Part shown: positions 5,242 through 41,413 of the stretch, piece by piece
How the letters are laid out: each line of letters begins with the position of its first letter
How positions within the stretch are numbered: position 1 is the stretch's first letter
Assembly (NCBI GenBank): GCA_963593905.1
Contig: CAVBBL010000006.1
Location: forward strand, 6,139-70,138
From: a bacterium
GTDB taxonomy: Bacteria; Bacillota; Clostridia; Lachnospirales; Lachnospiraceae
Length of the DNA stretch: 64,000 nucleotides
Direction of reading: 5' to 3'
The notes under the pieces: generated by a model
Seen by the model: only the letters and a program-made list of their open reading frames with translations
Databases searched by the model: none
What the model was told of the DNA's origin: nothing
Program-made: the position numbers and the translations under genes

Positions 5242-5449
5242 ACCTGTCTCCCTCTCCTGCAACTTAGTCGCAGGTCTGTTGACTTCTTTTGGTTCCTGCA
5301 ATTAACGTCATCTATGTCCCCCCCGATTTTACGCAGGGGTGAGTTCACATTCATTCACCGGGCTCTGCATATTGACCCATACCAAATGCTGTCATTTGGA
5401 TCACCCGGGTGCAGGTACGAGGTCACCCTGCAGTATAATCTAACTGTAC

Positions 5450-6136
5450 TCAGCGAATGAAGGAAATCCTGTTTAATGGCCAGATCCGCAGAAACACCTT
5501 TCCGGTAATCTGACTTTTTTCTATACAGCCGATGGCACTGCTGCGGCTGTCAATGGAGACACTGCGGTGATCTCCCAATACGAAATAGCGATTTTCCGGC
5601 ACCTGATAAGGGAACTTGATATCACACTCCCCCAGTGCCAGACTGTCCACGTAGGGCTCATCCAAAACTGCGCCGTTTACGCTGACTACGCCGTCGCTGT
5701 TAATATCAATAATGTCACCAGGCGTGCCGATGATCCGCTTGATCAGGAGCTTATTCTGCCAATTAAAGCTGACCAGCTCTCCTGTCTCGAATTTATTGGT
5801 CTTCAGCAGCAGAATAATGTCCTTGTCATAGAGGGTGTGCTCCATACTGTCACCGGATACCTGCAGCACCGGCAAAAAAAGCATCGCCAGCAGTACCGCC
5901 ACGGCCGCCACTACTACCAGGGCATAAACGGTACTTCGGAAGGTATGTCTGTACCTTTTCCGATAAGCCAGTCTGTCGCGTTCTGCCTCGATTTCCTCCA
6001 AAGAAGGAAGGAAATCATCCTCCTCTGGGAGGCTCTCCTCTAGAAATGATTCTTCGGAAAAGCGCAGACTGTCTGTCTCACACTGCTGCGCATCACCTGC
6101 TGTCATCTCATCATACTCTGTCATCTCATCATCCAT
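5450..6136 (-). CDS. Signal peptidase I (S26, P-type) with long acidic N-terminal extension
   Basis: It has SGDSMEHTL (Ser box), LIKRIIGTPGD (Lys box) and GDHRSVSIDSR. About 75 aa of D/E-rich sequence precede the single TM. The start lies 7 nt after the upstream stop. Confidence 0.85.
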   Translation of the reverse strand: MDDEMTEYDEMTAGDAQQCETDSLRFSEESFLEESLPEEDDFLPSLEEIEAERDRLAYRKRYRHTFRSTVYALVVVAAVAVLLAMLFLPVLQVSGDSMEHTLYDKDIILLLKTNKFETGELVSFNWQNKLLIKRIIGTPGDIIDINSDGVVSVNGAVLDEPYVDSLALGECDIKFPYQVPENRYFVLGDHRSVSIDSRSSAIGCIEKSQITGKVFLRIWPLNRISFIR

Positions 6137-6143
6137 TCGATTC

Positions 6144-6647
6144 TCACCCTATTGCAGAAGCCCTGCTTCTCTTATAAATCTCCTGAAGCCTCTCATTCTG
6201 CGTCGCTTTCCGTGACTGCATCTGGCGGTGAGTCTCGCCCCCCCGTTGTTCCTTACTTTCCGAATGGTCCTTTAGGAATTTCTCAATAGCACGCTGTGCT
6301 ATGAACTGAATAGCCGCAGCATCCTGCTCTGCCTCCTGGATCATCTTCTCTGCCCGGACTTTGGCCTGCTTCACCACAGCCTCCGCATAAAGAGCACTGT
6401 CTGCATTGGCTTCCCGTTTGATCTGAGCCTCCCGCTCAGCCTGTTCCTGCGCCTGCTGCAGCAAATCAAGAACCTTCTGTCCGCAGTCCACCAGAGAGCC
6501 TGCATTCTGCAGCGGAATCTGTCTCTGCTGCAACTGCGCCTCCAGCTGCTGTCTTTCTGCCTGCAGGGCATTTTCACACGCCTGCAGCTTGCGGATGATT
6601 TCGATGAGCTCTTCCTTACTCATCTTGCGTAAATCTTTTTGTGCCAT
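6144..6647 (-). CDS. Coiled-coil protein, paralogue of 1434..1844
   Basis: ORF track 6144..6671. The ATG at 6647 is preceded by GGAGTGTGGGGA. MAQKDLRKMSKEELIEIIRKLQ is followed by Q/E/A-rich heptads (AEREAQIKREANADS..AEKMIQEAEQDAAAI). Confidence 0.7.
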   Translation of the reverse strand: MAQKDLRKMSKEELIEIIRKLQACENALQAERQQLEAQLQQRQIPLQNAGSLVDCGQKVLDLLQQAQEQAEREAQIKREANADSALYAEAVVKQAKVRAEKMIQEAEQDAAAIQFIAQRAIEKFLKDHSESKEQRGGETHRQMQSRKATQNERLQEIYKRSRASAIG

Positions 6648-21658: not shown

Positions 21659-21788
21659 TTTTATGAAATGTTTTATGAAATGTTTTATGAAATATTTTGT
21701 GAAATGTTTTATGAAATGTTTTATGAAATGTTTTGTGTAATGTTTTATGTAATGTTTTATGTAATGTTTTATGTAATGTTTTATGTAG
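21659..21788. repeat. 12-bp tandem array, 11 units in two subfamilies (TTTTATGAAATG x6 then TTTTATGTAATG x5)
   Basis: I read the array directly. It lies 360-490 nt upstream of gdhA. Confidence 0.9.
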
Positions 21789-21878
21789 TACGCTACCAAT
21801 ATCAAAAGAGTTTTTGAAACTAACACTGACTGATACTTCCATGTAAGCTACCATGCAGCAAATCAATTAGCGGCCTTC

Positions 21879-22147
21879 AAAGCGTAATGCACCGGGGTGC
21901 GGCAGAATGACTCGCATCCTTTGCACTGCGCGCCAGTTTTGCATGGTTTGCATCGCAGCCGGAGGATGGTATCGGGCACGCTTTCAGAGCGTGCTCGATA
22001 GGCCCGCCTGTCTGAGCATCCCCGCATCAGGCGGGGATGCGAGTTAAGGGCCGGCCATCCGCAGGCAAGAGGCAAACCATAGCAAAACGGTGCAAAGTGC
22101 ATGGTGCGAGACATCTGCCGCACCCCGGTGCATGAACGGGCGACACC
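21879..22147 (+). repeat. GC-rich 269-nt multi-stem element, copy A (candidate structured ncRNA/cis-leader or MITE)
   Basis: It is about 90 percent identical to the reverse complement of 36372..36640. The ends form an 18-bp perfect closing stem GCACCGGGGTGCGGCAGA / TCTGCCGCACCCCGGTGC. Internal hairpins include TATCGGGCACGC/GCGTGCTCGATA and GCATCCCCGC/GCGGGGATGC. Confidence 0.8.
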
Positions 22148-22217
22148 AATCATGCAGCACTAATCATGCAGCACTAACCATGCAGCACTAACCAAGCAGC
22201 ACTAACCAAGCGGCACT
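22148..22217. repeat. 14-bp tandem array (AAYCAWGCRGCACT)x5 abutting element copy A
   Basis: The units read aatcatgcagcact, aatcatgcagcact, aaccatgcagcact, aaccaagcagcact and aaccaagcggcact. Confidence 0.85.
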
Positions 22218-22309
22218 TTCACAGTATTTTCGCAATTTCTTATTTTCAAAGAAGGTAACATGGCATAAAATAGGATTATACATGTCTATTCGCACAGATC
22301 GGAGTCCCC

Positions 22310-23545
22310 ATGCGTCAATATGAATTAATTGCCCCCTGCCATTTCGGCATGGAAAGTGTTGTCAAAAATGAAATCTATGAACTCGGTTATGATATTTCCG
22401 AGGTGACGGACGGCCGTGTTACCTTTATCGGCGATGCAGATGCCATAGCCAGGGCCAATATCTGCCTGCGCAGCGCAGAACGCATACTCTTAAAGGTAGG
22501 AAGTTTTCACGCAGAGACTTATGAAGAGCTTTTTCAGGGCACCAAAGCCCTTGACTGGGATGCGTTTCTTCCCAGAGAAGCCCGCTTCTGGGTGACCAAG
22601 GCGGCCAGCGTGCGAAGTAAGCTTTTTTCCCCATCAGACATTCAGTCCGTCATGAAACGAGCTATGGTGGAGAAGATGAAGCTGCGCTACCGTATTGACC
22701 ATTTTCCGGAGACCGGTGCTTCCTATCCGGTTCGTGTCTTCCTATTAAAAGATGAAGTGACAGCGGCAATCGACACCACCGGCGAATCCCTGCATAAACG
22801 CGGCTACCGCAAGTATGCTGTCAAGGCACCTATCGCTGAGAATCTGGCTGCCGGTCTTCTCATGCTCACTCCCTGGAAACCGGACCGCATTCTGGTAGAT
22901 CCCTTCTGCGGCAGCGGCACATTTCCCATAGAGGCTGCCCTGCTGGCCGCTAATATCCCCCCGGGACTATATCGCCATTTTACCGCAGAGGAGTGGACGA
23001 ATCTTATCCCCTCTTCTGTTTGGAAGGATGTGCGGGAAGAAATGGCAGAGTACATTGATCTTTCCGTGGAGACAGATATTCAGGGCTACGATATTGATCC
23101 GGAGGCCATCGCCGCTGCCAGGGAAAATGCCAAGCTAGCCGGCGTACAAAAGCTCATCCACTTCCAGGTTCGCCCTGTGGAGGCGCTCTCTCACCCCAAG
23201 AAATACGGATTCCTGATCACCAATCCCCCTTATGGTGAGAGGCTTCACGGTTTTACCCCCGGCAGCAATGCTCCCCGCAGCATCGCCGCCTCCAAGCTTG
23301 AGGTAACTGCCGCCCCCACTCCCGCTGATGAAGCGGCCATGGCAGAGATTGCCGCACTGTACCGCACCCTAGGCGATCGTTATCGTGCCCTTGGCACCTG
23401 GTCCATGTACATGATCACCTCTTATGATGACTGTGAACGGGAACTTGCTCTTAAATCTGCCAAGAAGCGTAAGATTTACAACGGCATGCTCAAGACTTGG
23501 TTTTATCAGTTCCCCGGTCCAAAGCCGGTGAGGCGAAACCAATAG
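22310..23545 (+). CDS. THUMP-domain class I SAM-dependent RNA (rRNA/tRNA) methyltransferase (RlmL/YpsC-like)
   Basis: It has N-terminal THUMP-like sequence, the SAM motif VDPFCGSGTFPIEAA and the catalytic NPPYGER. Confidence 0.8.
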   Translation: MRQYELIAPCHFGMESVVKNEIYELGYDISEVTDGRVTFIGDADAIARANICLRSAERILLKVGSFHAETYEELFQGTKALDWDAFLPREARFWVTKAASVRSKLFSPSDIQSVMKRAMVEKMKLRYRIDHFPETGASYPVRVFLLKDEVTAAIDTTGESLHKRGYRKYAVKAPIAENLAAGLLMLTPWKPDRILVDPFCGSGTFPIEAALLAANIPPGLYRHFTAEEWTNLIPSSVWKDVREEMAEYIDLSVETDIQGYDIDPEAIAAARENAKLAGVQKLIHFQVRPVEALSHPKKYGFLITNPPYGERLHGFTPGSNAPRSIAASKLEVTAAPTPADEAAMAEIAALYRTLGDRYRALGTWSMYMITSYDDCERELALKSAKKRKIYNGMLKTWFYQFPGPKPVRRNQ

Positions 23546-23573: not shown

Positions 23574-24326
23574 TTGCGTTTACAGATTATTTTTGCAACG
23601 GGCAATCAGGATAAAGTCAGAGAGATTCGGGAGATCATGAATGATCCCCAGCTGCGTATTGCCTCCTTAAAGGATGCCGGTCTGGTCAGTGATCCCGTGG
23701 AAGACGGCTGGACCTTTGAGGCCAATGCCATCATCAAAGCCAAGGCTGTGGCGAACCTGCTGCGGATGCACGGCTCTGCTTCCTGGGCAAGAGAGCGTCA
23801 GGAAATCATGGAACAAAAAGAGCTCCTCACCCCGGCACAGCTGCAAGAGAAGCTGGATGCTACAGAGATTCCTCTTCTTCCCCTTCCGGATGGGGATCCC
23901 CAAATTCCTCTCGTCGTCATGGCAGAGGATTCCGGTCTGGTCATTGATGCCTTAAACGGCGAACCGGGAATTCAGACAGCTCGGTATCTGGGACATGACA
24001 CCTCTCATGAAGAGAAAATGAAACACATTCTGATGCGCATGGAGGGAGTGCCGGAGGAAAAACGCACTGCCAGATTCGTGGCAGCTATGGCAGCCTGTCT
24101 GCCAAACGGTGCCTCCTTTACCGTCCGCGGGGAGGTGGAGGGACACATTGCTCATGAGATCTGCGGTCAGGGCGGTTTTGGTTATGATCCCATCTTCTAC
24201 CTTCCGGAACTCGGCAAGACCACTGCCGAACTGACAGAGGATGAGAAAAACCAAATCAGTCACCGGGGACGTGCCTGCCGATTGATGCTGCAGAAGTTAG
24301 AAGAGATCTATGGCCAAAATGCCTGA
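23574..24326 (+). CDS. rdgB: RdgB/HAM1 non-canonical purine NTP pyrophosphatase with an internal insertion
   Basis: The TTG start follows GGAGGATGG. It has IIFATGNQDKVREI, EDSGLVIDALNGEPGIQTARY, FGYDPIF and SHRGRA. An insert of about 50 aa (RMHGSASWARERQEIM...) is not expected in the family. Confidence 0.8.
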   Translation: MRLQIIFATGNQDKVREIREIMNDPQLRIASLKDAGLVSDPVEDGWTFEANAIIKAKAVANLLRMHGSASWARERQEIMEQKELLTPAQLQEKLDATEIPLLPLPDGDPQIPLVVMAEDSGLVIDALNGEPGIQTARYLGHDTSHEEKMKHILMRMEGVPEEKRTARFVAAMAACLPNGASFTVRGEVEGHIAHEICGQGGFGYDPIFYLPELGKTTAELTEDEKNQISHRGRACRLMLQKLEEIYGQNA

Positions 24327-24385
24327 TGGCATTTTCAGTCATTCCAAGGATACCTTCGGTATTCTTTATCATCGCAGAGGTAAGT

Positions 24386-24932: not shown

Positions 24933-25012
24933 TGCGGATAACAGGACTTGAACCTGCACCCTGTCGGACCAGAACCTAAATCTGGCGCGTCTGCCAATTC
25001 CGCCATATCCGC
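24933..25012 (-). tRNA. tRNA-Leu (anticodon UAG), long variable arm
   Basis: The acceptor is GCGGATA/TATCCGC. The anticodon arm is CCAGA-TTTAGGT-TCTGG. The T arm is GGTTCAAGTCC. No CCA is encoded. Confidence 0.85.
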
Positions 25013-25062
25013 ATAAATGAGATAAATATCATGATACAATTTTATATAAATTTATATAAAGA

Positions 25063-25088
25063 TAAAAAATACCACCCATAAGGGTGGT
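25063..25088 (-). terminator. Terminator after the six-tRNA block
   Basis: The minus sense reads ACCACCC-ttat-GGGTGGT then ATTTTTTATC. Confidence 0.6.
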
Positions 25089-25097
25089 TGACTTCAG

Positions 25098-36123: not shown

Positions 36124-36279
36124 GCTAGTCTCCATTTCTGAGCAGGTTCGCTGCGAAGAGGTGATGAGAATTCTGTATGCAGGAATTCTCTGATTTTCTT
36201 ATCATTTTACTATATTAGCTGCATTCCGAAAAGATGAGGGGATCATAATAAGATGAGTTATCGCAATAGAAATTACAGA

Positions 36280-36312
36280 TCAAGGTGTCAAGGTGCCGCC
36301 CGGCCATGCACC
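36280..36312. repeat. Solo 33-nt duplicate of the end of element copy B
   Basis: tcaaggtgtcaaggtgccgcccggccatgcacc compares with tcaaggtgtccgggtgccgcccggccatgcacc at 36360..36392. The offset is 80 bp. Confidence 0.8.
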
Positions 36313-36371
36313 TGCTCATTTAATCATTTTGATGTAATGCCTTTTGTAGACTTTACCATTCAAGGTGTCCG

Positions 36372-36640
36372 GGTGCCGCCCGGCCATGCACCGGGGCGCG
36401 GCAGATGTCTCGCACCATGCACTTTGCACCGTTTTGCTAAGGTTCGCCTCTCGCCTTCGGATGGCCGGCCCTTAACTCGCATCCCCGCTTGATGCGGGTC
36501 TGCTCAGACAGGCGGGCCTATCGAGCGCGCTCTGAAAGCGCGCCCGATACCATCCTCCGGCTTCGATGCCAACCTAAGCAAAACTGGCGCGCAGTGCAAA
36601 GGATGCGAGCCATTCTGCCACGCCCCGGTGCATTACGTTT
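36372..36640 (-). repeat. GC-rich 269-nt multi-stem element, copy B (inverted relative to copy A)
   Basis: Its reverse complement aligns end to end with 21879..22147, with about 25 differences. Three of these are compensatory pairs within predicted stems. Confidence 0.8.
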
Positions 36641-36726
36641 TGCCAATTCATAATAAACAACCCAGAAATAAGATTCTTTGTATAACAATTCCGGAATATG
36701 TATAAATTGATAATTCCGCACCGTGC

Positions 36727-39104: not shown

Positions 39105-41105
39105 TTACTGTTCTTCCAGATAACTCTCAGTGGGCATCTGGGGTGCATCTTCCAGATTTGTCACATCCAGATATCCCTTGATGGGGAAATTATCAAAGGC
39201 CAGACCGCCCAAATACTCATAGCTGTCCAATCCGTCTATGCTGCACATGGTGTCCAGAAATTCTGACCAGTCTACCCATTTGTCCACTTTACCTACGTAG
39301 AGATAGCTCTCCCCGGGATTGACCACGGACACTGCATATTCGTTGCGGAAATAGTCCCCTTCTATCAGTTCCTCTTCTGTCAGATCCGGATTTTCCTCTC
39401 TGACCTTGTCATTATAATCCTCTGTCCGATCTTTGTCGAAGCCGTAATTGATGAACATTCTGTAATATTCCTGATTCTCATAGGTCTGCTTCTGCGTCAC
39501 CACCACGGCGTATTTCTGTCCTTTTTTCAGTTCCAGTCCGCCGTCATCGATCTCGAGGCGGTGATAACCGGCATGTTCAAAGGTAAGTTCACCGCTGGCT
39601 GCACTCTCTCCGTCGCAGGGAGTCTTAAAATCATCCTCCAGCAGGTAGCATTCCAGTTCCACCTCGATATTCTCTGCGTCTGTCTTGCACATAACGGAGC
39701 GGAGCACGCCGTCTGCCTCAGCGGTAAAGACGTTGGCCGTGGAAATCTTATTTTTTCCGGTCCAGCTCATCTCCTGACCGCTGGCCAGGAAATCGTATTG
39801 GTCAATAATGGTATCCACTGTATCTGCCATATCTGTGTCAAAGAGATATGCCTGCATATCGCTGAGGCTTCGGTCATAGTAAGAGATATAGAAATAACCT
39901 GTACTGTATCCCCCTTCGTCCACAATGCCCCAGGGACTGGCATTCGGGAAGGAGGAATAATCTGATCCCCAGCTGTTCTTGACGATCCAGGCGCCGTCTC
40001 CTTCGGGCAGATGAGCCTCGCCATCTCCGTCAGGATCATCAGTATGATCCAGAAAATCCTCTCTGGAAATGGTATCGTCCCATCCCACGATAGTCACCTC
40101 ATGATTGGAAGGACTTCCATCATAGGTAAAGTGGGTCCAATGGTTATCCGCTGTGTTGATATAGGAAGGTATTTCCTCCTCTGCATTTTCCGCATAAGGG
40201 GAATAACTATCCGCACAGATCGCCACAGTGATGGCACGACCGCTGAGAAGCACATCCTTCATCGTATCTGTGGCTCCCTGGTCGTATCCCTTGTAATTGG
40301 CCTCCCGCTCTTCCTTGTCTGCGCTGGTCTCGCCGATATTCCCTGTATAGACTGCCGGAGAGAGCAGTACGTCCGCACTCATCAGCTCATAGTTGTGAAC
40401 GAAACGGTACTCCTCAGGAACAGACCAATCATCCTCTGTGCTGTAATTTAAGGGATCACCGTCCTCGTCATCGACAGTATTGCCTTCCTTACCTCTGTAG
40501 GGAATCATGGACTCCGGCGCAATGCCTACACCGGAGGCTAACAGTGTGGTCGCCTCTGCCGTGGTGCCCCCGGCGTCCATGGGAGAGACATCGAAAAGAG
40601 TATGCATACCCTCTCCGTCCTGGCTGGAGCCGTCACTGAGACCGGTACCGGAGAAATAACCGATCTGGTGCTCGGAGAGATCCAGCCCGGTCTCCTCATA
40701 GGTCTGATCCAGACTGGAAAGGATGCTGGTCTCCGCAGCTGCTACGGTACCGAATACCCAGCAGCTGCCCCAGGGAGTTTGGTCCTTGACCGGTGTCACA
40801 TAGCCATAGTCCCGCAGATCAAACTGCTCAGGAAAATCGCCTGTGGATTCATCAGAGGGCTCCCGTTCCACTACCACATTCTCATCTTCATCATAGAGAG
40901 CAAGGACAATATCCTGCATGCTGGGCTCGCTCTCGGGCATGAGCATAAGAGCGGTAAAGGAAACCACTACTACGCCAACGACAATGAGCAGACCATTGCG
41001 GAGCTTGTGGGACTTCTTTTTCTTCATCGTGTTGCCGGAGAGCTGTGCCTCTGTATAAAGCACTTCTCCGGTATTCTGGCTGTTATTCTTTTTCTTTCTT
41101 CTCAT
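39105..41105 (-). CDS. Membrane-anchored papain-like (C1 family) cysteine peptidase with large C-terminal extension
   Basis: The start is MRRKKKNNSQ at 41105. It has the TM LLIVVGVVVVSFTALMLM. The catalytic Cys is in KDQTPWGSCWVFG, the His in NHEVTIVGWDD and the Asn-Trp in WIVKNSWG. The ORF track start at 41225 is an extension through the repeat. Confidence 0.85.
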   Translation of the reverse strand: MRRKKKNNSQNTGEVLYTEAQLSGNTMKKKKSHKLRNGLLIVVGVVVVSFTALMLMPESEPSMQDIVLALYDEDENVVVEREPSDESTGDFPEQFDLRDYGYVTPVKDQTPWGSCWVFGTVAAAETSILSSLDQTYEETGLDLSEHQIGYFSGTGLSDGSSQDGEGMHTLFDVSPMDAGGTTAEATTLLASGVGIAPESMIPYRGKEGNTVDDEDGDPLNYSTEDDWSVPEEYRFVHNYELMSADVLLSPAVYTGNIGETSADKEEREANYKGYDQGATDTMKDVLLSGRAITVAICADSYSPYAENAEEEIPSYINTADNHWTHFTYDGSPSNHEVTIVGWDDTISREDFLDHTDDPDGDGEAHLPEGDGAWIVKNSWGSDYSSFPNASPWGIVDEGGYSTGYFYISYYDRSLSDMQAYLFDTDMADTVDTIIDQYDFLASGQEMSWTGKNKISTANVFTAEADGVLRSVMCKTDAENIEVELECYLLEDDFKTPCDGESAASGELTFEHAGYHRLEIDDGGLELKKGQKYAVVVTQKQTYENQEYYRMFINYGFDKDRTEDYNDKVREENPDLTEEELIEGDYFRNEYAVSVVNPGESYLYVGKVDKWVDWSEFLDTMCSIDGLDSYEYLGGLAFDNFPIKGYLDVTNLEDAPQMPTESYLEEQ

Positions 41106-41413
41106 TTTTACCTCTTTGAGCCGCAGCTCGTCTGCGGCTATGTGAGGAGAATTTCGCGAAGGCGAATTCTCCGATACAATTAGCAAGGATGCCGAAGGTA
41201 TCCTTGCAATGACGAAAAATGGCATCAGACATTTTTCGTCATTTTCCCTCTTTAAGCCGCAGCTCGTCTGCGGCTATGTGAGGAGAATTTCGCGAAGGCG
41301 AATTCTCCGATACAATTAGCAAGGATGCCGAAGGTATCCTTGCAATGACAGAAAATGACATCAGTCATTTTCTGTCATTTTCCCTCTTTCAGCAGCAGCT
41401 TGTCTGCGGCTGC
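41106..41413. repeat. 136-nt four-hairpin modular repeat, 2.2 tandem units directly upstream of the peptidase start
   Basis: CCTCTTT recurs at 41111, 41247 and 41383, giving a period of 136. The hp1-hp4 order is the same as at 33004..33175. The last unit ends CTCAAAGAGGTAAAAATG (SD and start). Confidence 0.9.

Follow-up and report, generated by a model that had tools for sequence, protein, structure and literature searches.

The question raised by this locus is what the GC-rich, multi-stem sequence is that occurs twice, in opposite orientations, in a 64,000-nt stretch of a Lachnospiraceae contig (CAVBBL010000006.1; hereafter, the window). A first-pass annotation of the letters had taken it for a functional RNA lying in the 5' region of the next gene, and had named a MITE as the alternative.

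Copy A (21879-22147, plus strand) and the reverse complement of 36372-36640 (copy B, minus strand) aligned end to end, as had been claimed, but with 19 mismatches and 2 gap columns (approximately 92% identity) rather than the 25 or so differences reported at first. The GC content of the two copies was 61-63%, compared with 49% for the window. Conserved sequence continued for about 15-25 nt past these limits on each side, to approximately 21864-22152 (copy A) and 36369-36646 (copy B), and the nhmmer matches covered 21863-22164 (E = 1e-101) and 36356-36659 (E = 5e-99), respectively. The features referred to below are as follows.

21864..22152, plus strand: copy A, whole element, delimited by alignment to copy B and to the copies of other genomes; 5' tail AATCAATTAGCGGCCTTCAAAGCGTA, long hairpin, 3' tail TGAACGGGCGACACCAATCAT
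21889..22131, plus strand: core hairpin of copy A (about 95 bp, three-way tip)
21889-21906 paired with 22114-22131, plus strand: closing stem of copy A, 18 bp
21970..22000, plus strand: apical hairpin 1 of copy A, TATCGGGCACGC-TTTCAGA-GCGTGCTCGATA
22016..22040, plus strand: apical hairpin 2 of copy A, GCATCCCCGC-ATCAG-GCGGGGATGC
36369..36646, minus strand: copy B, whole element, with closing stem 36614-36631 paired with 36388-36405
36280..36312, minus strand: what remains of another copy, in tandem with copy B and immediately downstream of it; the hairpin is gone and the 3' tail GGTGCATGGCCGGGCGGCACCTTGACACCTTGA is left
21659..21785, no strand assigned: 12-nt tandem array of 10.6 copies (TTTTATGAAATG / TTTTATGTAATG), upstream of copy A
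22151..22217, no strand assigned: 14-nt tandem array of 4.8 copies (CATGCAGCACTAAC), adjoining copy A at its 3' tail

The 18-nt closing-stem sequence was found exactly four times in the window, at both ends of each copy, where 0.07 occurrences were expected by chance. The minimum free energy fold of copy A was a single imperfect hairpin, long and branched at its tip, of -177.8 kcal/mol (z = -15.3 relative to dinucleotide shuffles), and none of 200 shuffled sequences was as stable. The opposite strand of this copy gave a less stable fold (-165.3 kcal/mol, z = -11.9). Each of the window copies formed a hairpin of approximately 95 bp with a three-way tip, and the two inner hairpins that had been drawn by eye were both recovered in the fold of copy A, at 21970-22000 and 22016-22040. 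The unit is therefore a GC-rich sequence of approximately 270-310 nt, comprising a short 5' tail, an imperfect palindrome of about 250 nt whose tip branches three ways, and a 3' tail unlike that at the 5' end.

The three pairing-preserving double changes noticed between the window copies were also found in the alignment. The T:A to C:G change in the closing stem lay at columns 24-252 and the A:T to G:C change in the TATCGGGC[A/G]CGC hairpin at columns 105/119, while the T:A to A:T change was visible on direct reading (ATGG/CCAT versus TAGG/CCTT) but was masked by the gap placement of MAFFT. Apical hairpin 1 carried one compensatory change between copy A and copy B, from A:T to G:C. Apical hairpin 2 was invariant in the pairs counted, i.e. 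the inner five and three outer pairs; its 5' arm had GA instead of TC in copy B and in the copies from two further assemblies (L035/L036), and both of these positions are unpaired in the consensus.

Covariation was counted in eight full copies, seven of them distinct, for which RNAalifold gave a consensus of 95 pairs. Standard pairs occupied 98.4% of the stem cells, and double changes were seen in six pairs, among copies that are kin by descent, so that these events are not independent. In 500 column shuffles the observed covariation score was never reached, and pairing fell to 32-43% when the partner column was shifted by 1-3 positions. Paired columns were less often variable than unpaired ones (19.5% versus 38.8%; Fisher p = 0.003), and the terminal loops TTTCAGA and ATCAG were nearly invariant.

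The constraint was also specific to one strand. Appositions of G and T that pair in the plus sense only had been pointed out at two places, and more than two were found, including columns 43-233, 58-220, 97-182 and 103-121. Single-sided transitions in the stems, read in the plus sense, led to G:U in about 14 cases and to A:C in four (for at least 14 of 18, one-sided binomial approximately 0.015, in copies that share ancestry and whose events are not independent). Three of the four A:C changes were in the copy with the weakest structure (L023). The plus-sense fold was more stable than the minus-sense fold in all seven copies, by 2 to 27 kcal/mol, so that wobble pairs and fold stability agree on the sense first proposed (plus for copy A, minus for copy B). 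The hairpin is constrained on one defined strand, and the direction of the signal is consistent despite the shared ancestry of the copies. Pairing data do not distinguish RNA from single-stranded DNA here, because G:T is the least harmful mismatch in a DNA hairpin as well.

A search for further copies had been suggested, and more were found. When a genome collection was scanned for the terminal-repeat pattern, 32 loci matched; about half were single chance matches in unrelated phyla, 17 were in a metagenome-assembled genome, CAVBJS01, and one was in CAVBPR01. According to BLAST and nhmmer, the loci of these two genomes are copies of the element, complete or partial, that share 85-92% identity with those of the window and have flanks unrelated to window sequence. 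A spurious 96-aa ORF on copy A, used as a protein query, hit a single cluster, a mis-called 'protein' that led to copies in two ENA assemblies (L035/L036). In all the DNA retrieved, the copies, complete or partial, numbered at least 25. Identity was 90-96% within CAVBJS01, approximately 93% within the group formed by the window and L035 copies, and 84-89% between the two groups, and each genome has its own subfamily of the element.

Many of the CAVBJS01 and CAVBPR01 copies lie at contig ends, and contigs from four other assemblies of the window's own strain stop within the element (L034, L064-L066). Exact-protein searches with the genes next to copy B likewise led to no contigs but those interrupted within the element, and thus to no empty site there. 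As the element is a repeated palindrome, contigs of short-read assemblies break inside it. The window itself is 99.985% identical to a contig of GCA_963611125.1, and its host is Lachnospiraceae-like, to judge from the source names of THUMP methyltransferase homologues. No match to the element was obtained by blastn against phage and plasmid collections, a scan of viral contigs with the conserved core pattern gave nothing, and two scans of JGI metagenomes with conserved core patterns gave nothing or chance matches only. The family is otherwise rare, and was found in a few related gut Clostridia.

The first-pass annotation had matched the element to none of several known RNA consensus sequences, and an Rfam search of the whole window at gathering thresholds likewise detected tRNAs only. 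At E values up to 10, the region 21700-22320 gave one chance lncRNA match, which ended at the first bases of the element. Coding potential was rejected, reading frames not being conserved between copies. Consensus scans, which are a weak test, detected no promoter-like sigma-70 site before the element and no intrinsic terminator after it in the plus sense; two weak terminator-like matches lay inside the element on the opposite strand. A retron, a group II intron, 6S RNA, an omega-RNA or bridge-RNA and a plasmid single-strand origin were also considered and were rejected, since none had an Rfam match, the copies per genome are too many, and no reverse transcriptase, TnpB, IscB or recombinase gene is adjacent.

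The genes next to the copies are functionally unrelated. They include gdh, a THUMP methyltransferase, an aminotransferase, a PAS protein, recA, tilS, NlpC/P60, lrgB, thiW, GH127, hsdM, NUDIX, GNAT, a ybaK-like editing domain and HhH-GPD, and twenty flanking genes in the other genomes were ordinary and mutually unrelated. In a Pfam scan, the window ORFs of at least 150 aa proved to be ordinary genes of a chromosome; transposases, integrases and reverse transcriptases were absent. No transposase was seen in the 64-kb window or beside 20 other copies, no RAYT (Y1 transposase) gene lies within the window, and no Y1/RAYT or DDE partner was seen in the 64 kb of host genome together with 8-kb pieces of relatives.

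The distances to the next start codon, first given as 163 nt for copy A and about 250 nt for copy B, were measured as 163 and 249 nt; over the family they were approximately 70 nt (L035), 163, 249, 392 and more than 500 nt. Downstream of copy A, of copy B and of the L035 copy there is in each case a gene that runs in the same direction as the element, as would be expected of a leader, and the full copies located between genes of the same direction are all co-oriented with these genes (copy B, L015, L023 and L032). Two partial copies that have been rearranged point towards the end of a gene. Copies in divergent spacers (A, L035 and L031) are uninformative in this respect, because either orientation is co-oriented with one neighbour, and they make up three of the seven co-oriented cases. 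The placement of the element as a leader of the next gene was therefore not upheld: its neighbours have no function in common, its distance to the start codon is anything from about 70 to more than 500 nt, and copy A lies upstream of promoter-like hexamers, as described below.

A comparison of presence and absence between strains had been suggested, and it was informative at two loci. In a relative whose genes are 85-90% identical to those of the window (GCA_963594285.1, L037), the spacer between gdh and the THUMP gene aligns with the window as far as 21578, and alignment resumes at 22210. Between these points the window has 632 nt, comprising the 12-mer array, copy A and the 14-mer array, whereas the relative has 128 unrelated nt, and at the site of the 14-nt array it carries a single GCAGCACT. 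No remnant of the element was found in this spacer; a search prompted by the CGGCGGCACTTGA motif gave chance 8-mers only. The promoter-like hexamers of the THUMP gene (22218-22271) are in the segment that is kept in this relative; copy A therefore lies upstream of them and outside the leader.

The second locus, AKR-PAS, has a full copy in L035/L036. In L067, whose PAS protein is 83% identical, the 3' arm alone is present, 15 nt before the ribosome-binding site, and in L068/L069 (75% identity) the element is absent. The surviving arm in L067 is 89% identical to L035, compared with 81-84% for the flanking genes. An extended -10 box, TGTGTATAAT, is conserved upstream of the element in all three of these relatives, and the L035 element is therefore inside the 5' UTR, in the sense orientation. 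The position of the element relative to promoters differs between loci, and relatives do without it. Its absence or halving in relatives is a further point against the supposed role as leader of the next gene, as are the loss of the hairpin from three copies and the occurrence of copies in tandem.

The three copies that have lost the hairpin and kept their tails are found at 6034-6218 and 7061-7232 of L032 and at 36280-36312 of the window, the window remnant matching the architecture of the other two. The junctions differ among the three copies, so the deletions are independent events. Two tandem copies are present in L012 and an extra 3' end in L023, and the 5' junction AAAACGTAATG is duplicated in several copies, as if by stuttering. 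CAVBJS01 has in addition an upstream L module, which consists of a 45-nt hairpin, GTTACAGTTCAGAC...GTCTGAACTATAAC, followed by a T-run, and is present in one to three tandem copies. The order in this genome is a mosaic of L module, linker GGATCGATAGCAGAACGCAAAACGTAATG, core and tail (AAATTATCATAGTAACCTG...), sometimes followed by another L module, and core-less copies and tandem cores also occur. When the L module was sought in the window, matches were at chance level, and the window copies are without it. The loss of hairpins, the loss of arms and tandem duplication are the behaviour of repetitive palindromic DNA, and are unexpected for a conserved RNA gene.

Taken as a whole, many copies of the element are present per genome, in intergenic positions beside unrelated genes, and they have been gained or lost at orthologous sites. 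The family probably represents lineage-specific, non-coding dispersed hairpin repeats of a small uncultured Lachnospiraceae-like gut clade, and we prefer multiplication in trans by a machinery that recognises the hairpin. 'MITE-like' or 'REPIN-like hairpin repeat' would be the better name; the family is new, but its kind is known from MITE, REPIN, BOX and bcr1 elements. We infer movement from presence or absence and from copy number, with no target-site duplication or clean empty site having been found.

Since the element encodes nothing, it would have to be multiplied in trans by an unlinked enzyme. This enzyme would most likely recognise a folded single strand, in the style of REPINs or of IS200-IS605, and a classical cut-and-paste transposase acting on terminal repeats would be less likely. 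The single-strand mode is preferred because the inverted repeat lies inward of the ends, between asymmetric tails, because target-site duplications were not seen, because deep pairing is conserved with wobble tolerated on one strand only, and because several copies have lost exactly the hairpin. One observation does not fit: the window copies are in opposite orientations while the surrounding GC skew is uniformly negative, at odds with the replication-strand bias of IS608-type elements. The constraint on the stem and the co-orientation of full copies between tandem genes would be explained equally well by a function at the RNA level.

Transcripts of Correia elements are cut by RNase III. In copies located in a transcript in the sense orientation (the L035 copy in its 5' UTR, and perhaps copy B), the helix of about 95 bp would form in the mRNA, where it would probably act as a passive double-stranded processing or stability element and not as a dedicated regulator. 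A role of co-transcribed copies in mRNA processing or stability is thus probable by analogy with REP, ERIC and Correia elements.

Among known systems, REPINs are doublets of REP sequences that are mobilised by RAYT tyrosine transposases in Pseudomonas and Enterobacteria (Bertels and Rainey 2011, PMC3116915), and their hairpins are kept through compensatory changes (PMC3116915). Like REPINs, the present elements are non-coding, intergenic hairpin repeats with many copies per genome and with compensatory changes, have a fold predicted for single-stranded DNA or for mRNA, occur in tandem clusters and as defunct remnants, and have in some cases lost the hairpin while leaving a tail behind. They differ in having a hairpin of about 250 nt, as against approximately 70-110 (about three times longer), with a branched tip, and in their Firmicute host. 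Compared by eye with the description in PMC3733652, they also have no recognisable REP unit of 20-40 nt or GTAG/CGTC head, their 5' junction being AAAACGTAATGCACC.

The bcr1 element of the Bacillus cereus group is approximately 155 bp long, has flanking 5-bp direct repeats and is transcribed (Okstad, Klevan, Kristoffersen; PMC3184786), and compensatory changes keep its structure at the RNA level, although some copies have lost stability (PMC3184786). Both families are dispersed, non-coding, strain-variable Firmicute repeats of stable structure with compensatory changes and some destabilised copies; unlike bcr1, for which the comparison is by description only, no direct repeats were found here. 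BOX elements of Streptococcus pneumoniae (Martin 1992; Croucher 2011; reviewed in PMC3184786) are similar in being modular, MITE-like intergenic repeats of a Firmicute, with stable stem-loops, variable combinations of modules and unrelated neighbours. A modularity of this type was found in CAVBJS01, in which L module, core and tail vary in number and order. The modules of BOX are short and do not form a single helix of 95 bp, boxA, boxB and boxC being compared by description only. Correia/NEMIS, ERIC and Nezha elements are in the same size range and are imperfect intergenic palindromes with effects expected at the mRNA level (PMC3184786), and ERIC and Correia elements are known to be co-transcribed (PMC3184786). 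Unlike the present elements, they have inverted repeats at their very ends and target-site duplications (TA in the case of Correia), neither of which was found here.

The best of the alternatives, which we nevertheless consider unlikely, is a classical cut-and-paste MITE, i.e. an internally deleted IS whose terminal repeats, ATGCACCGGGGCGCGGCAGA, are bound by a distant DDE transposase, the rest of the palindrome being accidental. The element is short (under about 600 bp), non-coding and multi-copy, it is polymorphic for presence or absence, and close to each end it carries one arm of an inverted repeat of about 20 nt. In this sense the MITE alternative of the first-pass annotation was roughly right in proposing a mobile repeat; the hallmarks, terminal inverted repeats and target-site duplications, were not found. 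The inverted repeat begins at ATGCACC, non-palindromic sequence is conserved for a further 15-30 nt to its left and right, and neither tail is an inverted copy of the other. Copy A has the 9-nt sequence CATGCAGCA on either side, but as a target-site duplication this was set aside, since it belongs to the local 14-nt tandem array, and flanking direct repeats were seen neither at copy B nor at L035 nor at the CAVBJS01 copies. Compensatory pairing reaches 60-100 nt into the element, far past a transposase-binding site, and a wobble bias on one strand would be unexpected for a duplex recognised as double-stranded DNA. A classical MITE would be possible if an IS with matching ends exists elsewhere in the genome.

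It is quite unlikely that the copies are genes, perhaps mobile ones, each encoding its own structured non-coding RNA (about 250 nt) in the plus sense, in which the long helix and three-way junction are functional, for example as a protein-binding or guide-like RNA. Such genes would account for pairing kept by double changes, for stems less variable than loops, for the nearly invariant TTTCAGA and ATCAG loops, and for the excess of G:U over A:C and the more stable plus-sense fold, which single out one strand; the higher identity of the L067 arm relative to its flanking genes points the same way. Mobile hairpin repeats give the same covariation signature, however, and the plus sense has neither a promoter-like site before the element nor a terminator after it, nor any Rfam match. 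Copies have been lost, halved or stripped of their hairpin with no compensation visible, and the L035 copy lies within a 5' UTR, copy A upstream of a promoter. A nearly perfect helix of this length (about 95 bp) would, moreover, be a substrate for RNase III and is atypical of a functional fold. The proposal of a functional RNA in the 5' region of the next gene was supported as regards structure, pairing-preserving changes, preference for one strand and lack of an Rfam match, but not as regards placement in a leader.

A cis-regulatory leader (riboswitch or attenuator) of the downstream co-oriented gene is largely refuted and most improbable, since, apart from the L035 copy in its 5' UTR downstream of TGTGTATAAT, it would have to regulate genes without a common function at variable distances, from upstream of a promoter in copy A, with no terminator, anti-terminator or RBS-sequestering arrangement found, with orthologous genes that lack the element (L037, L068) or have half of it (L067), and with three of seven co-oriented cases uninformative.

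Returning to the dispersed hairpin repeat, there is a slim chance that its core is not just selfish DNA in decay and that its fold is itself under selection, the element acting as a strand-specific nucleic acid of about 250 nt with some 95 bp and a conserved three-way junction. It would then be either a new Firmicute hairpin mobilised as single-stranded DNA by a non-RAYT enzyme, or a mobile RNA adopted by its host, e.g. as a processing or stability module of 5' UTRs.

In practical terms, the element breaks short-read assemblies and has been mis-called as hypothetical proteins, P0001 and the 96-aa ORF of copy A being examples. Because it shows covariation, it can also be mistaken for a new structured RNA; a functional RNA gene cannot be told from a mobile hairpin repeat by compensatory changes and a G:U strand bias. 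Hairpin repeats of the REPIN type have received much attention in Proteobacteria and very little in gut Clostridia. The family would gain in importance if its hairpins turned out to be mobilised in Firmicutes as single-stranded DNA, or if it were a structured RNA that has been co-opted. A family constrained on one strand could lead to the enzyme that multiplies it, or could reveal effects on the expression of neighbouring genes.

Short tandem arrays lie on either side of copy A of the main element, the dispersed GC-rich hairpin repeat, in the window:
21659-21785, 12-nt unit, 10.6 copies, one side of copy A
22151-22217, 14-nt unit, 4.8 copies, other side of copy A

Both arrays fall within a 632-nt block that is not present in the close relative (L037); at the position of the 14-mer array, L037 carries one GCAGCACT only. 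The 5' junction motif of the main element, AAAACGTAATG, is itself tandemly duplicated in several of the copies in the MAG CAVBJS01. ORFs of 96 and 168 aa cross the element (window 21863-22153, minus strand; P0001, a mis-called protein, in the ENA assemblies L035 and L036), and one of them stands in public collections as a predicted protein. Both were rejected as genes, being artefacts of the GC-rich sequence of the element.

A second intergenic repeat family, unrelated to the main element, is present in the window and is common to it and the same related genomes as the main element. The unit is about 135-170 nt long and contains several short hairpins (GCCGCAGCTTGTCTGCGGC; GGAGAATT..AATTCTCC; GGATGCC..GGCATCC). 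Copies were located in the window, in L035 and in loci of other genomes:
window 33000-33172, copy
window 41102-41275 and 41242-41412, tandem pair
window 24316-24366, partial copy
L035 5586-5745
L023 7378-7575 and 3605-3728
L001 3841-4057
L021 7460-7616
L032 6358-6451

The hairpin GAGAATTC-N-GAATTCTC (window 36166-36190), situated between copy B of the main element and the aminotransferase gene, is similar to the central hairpin of this family, and was scored as terminator-like on the plus strand in a consensus scan.

A further, distinct hairpin module, about 45 nt long (GTTACAGTTCAGACGCCGG..CGGCAGAGGTCTGAACTATAAC, then a T-run), was found alongside the main element in CAVBJS01, with tandem occurrences, and also in a relative without that element (L068); it is absent from the window. 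The module has the appearance of a repeat of the REP-like or terminator-like kind:
L015 6890-7203
L001 5200-5260
L032 6030-6100 and 6215-6260
L068 2470-2500 and 2800-2860

CAVBJS01, the MAG with the most main-element copies, is labelled 'Bacteroidaceae bacterium'. It has two lineage-specific repeat families in common with the window, and homologues of the window's THUMP protein carry the names Lachnospiraceae or Lachnoclostridium; CAVBJS01 may be taxonomically mislabelled. Directly downstream of the THUMP, Ham1 and phosphoesterase genes lies a seven-gene tRNA cluster (window 24933-25683, minus strand).

An extended -10 promoter-like box, TGTGTATAATATATCA, is kept with its surroundings in the AKR-PAS spacer of three species, which there carry a full copy of the main element (L035), its 3' arm only (L067) and none (L068):
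L035 ~5290-5330, reverse strand
L067 ~2860-2900
L068 ~2710-2750

Conservation of this box implies that the 5' UTR of the PAS-domain gene is long, and it is into this UTR that the main element was inserted in one lineage, where it persists.
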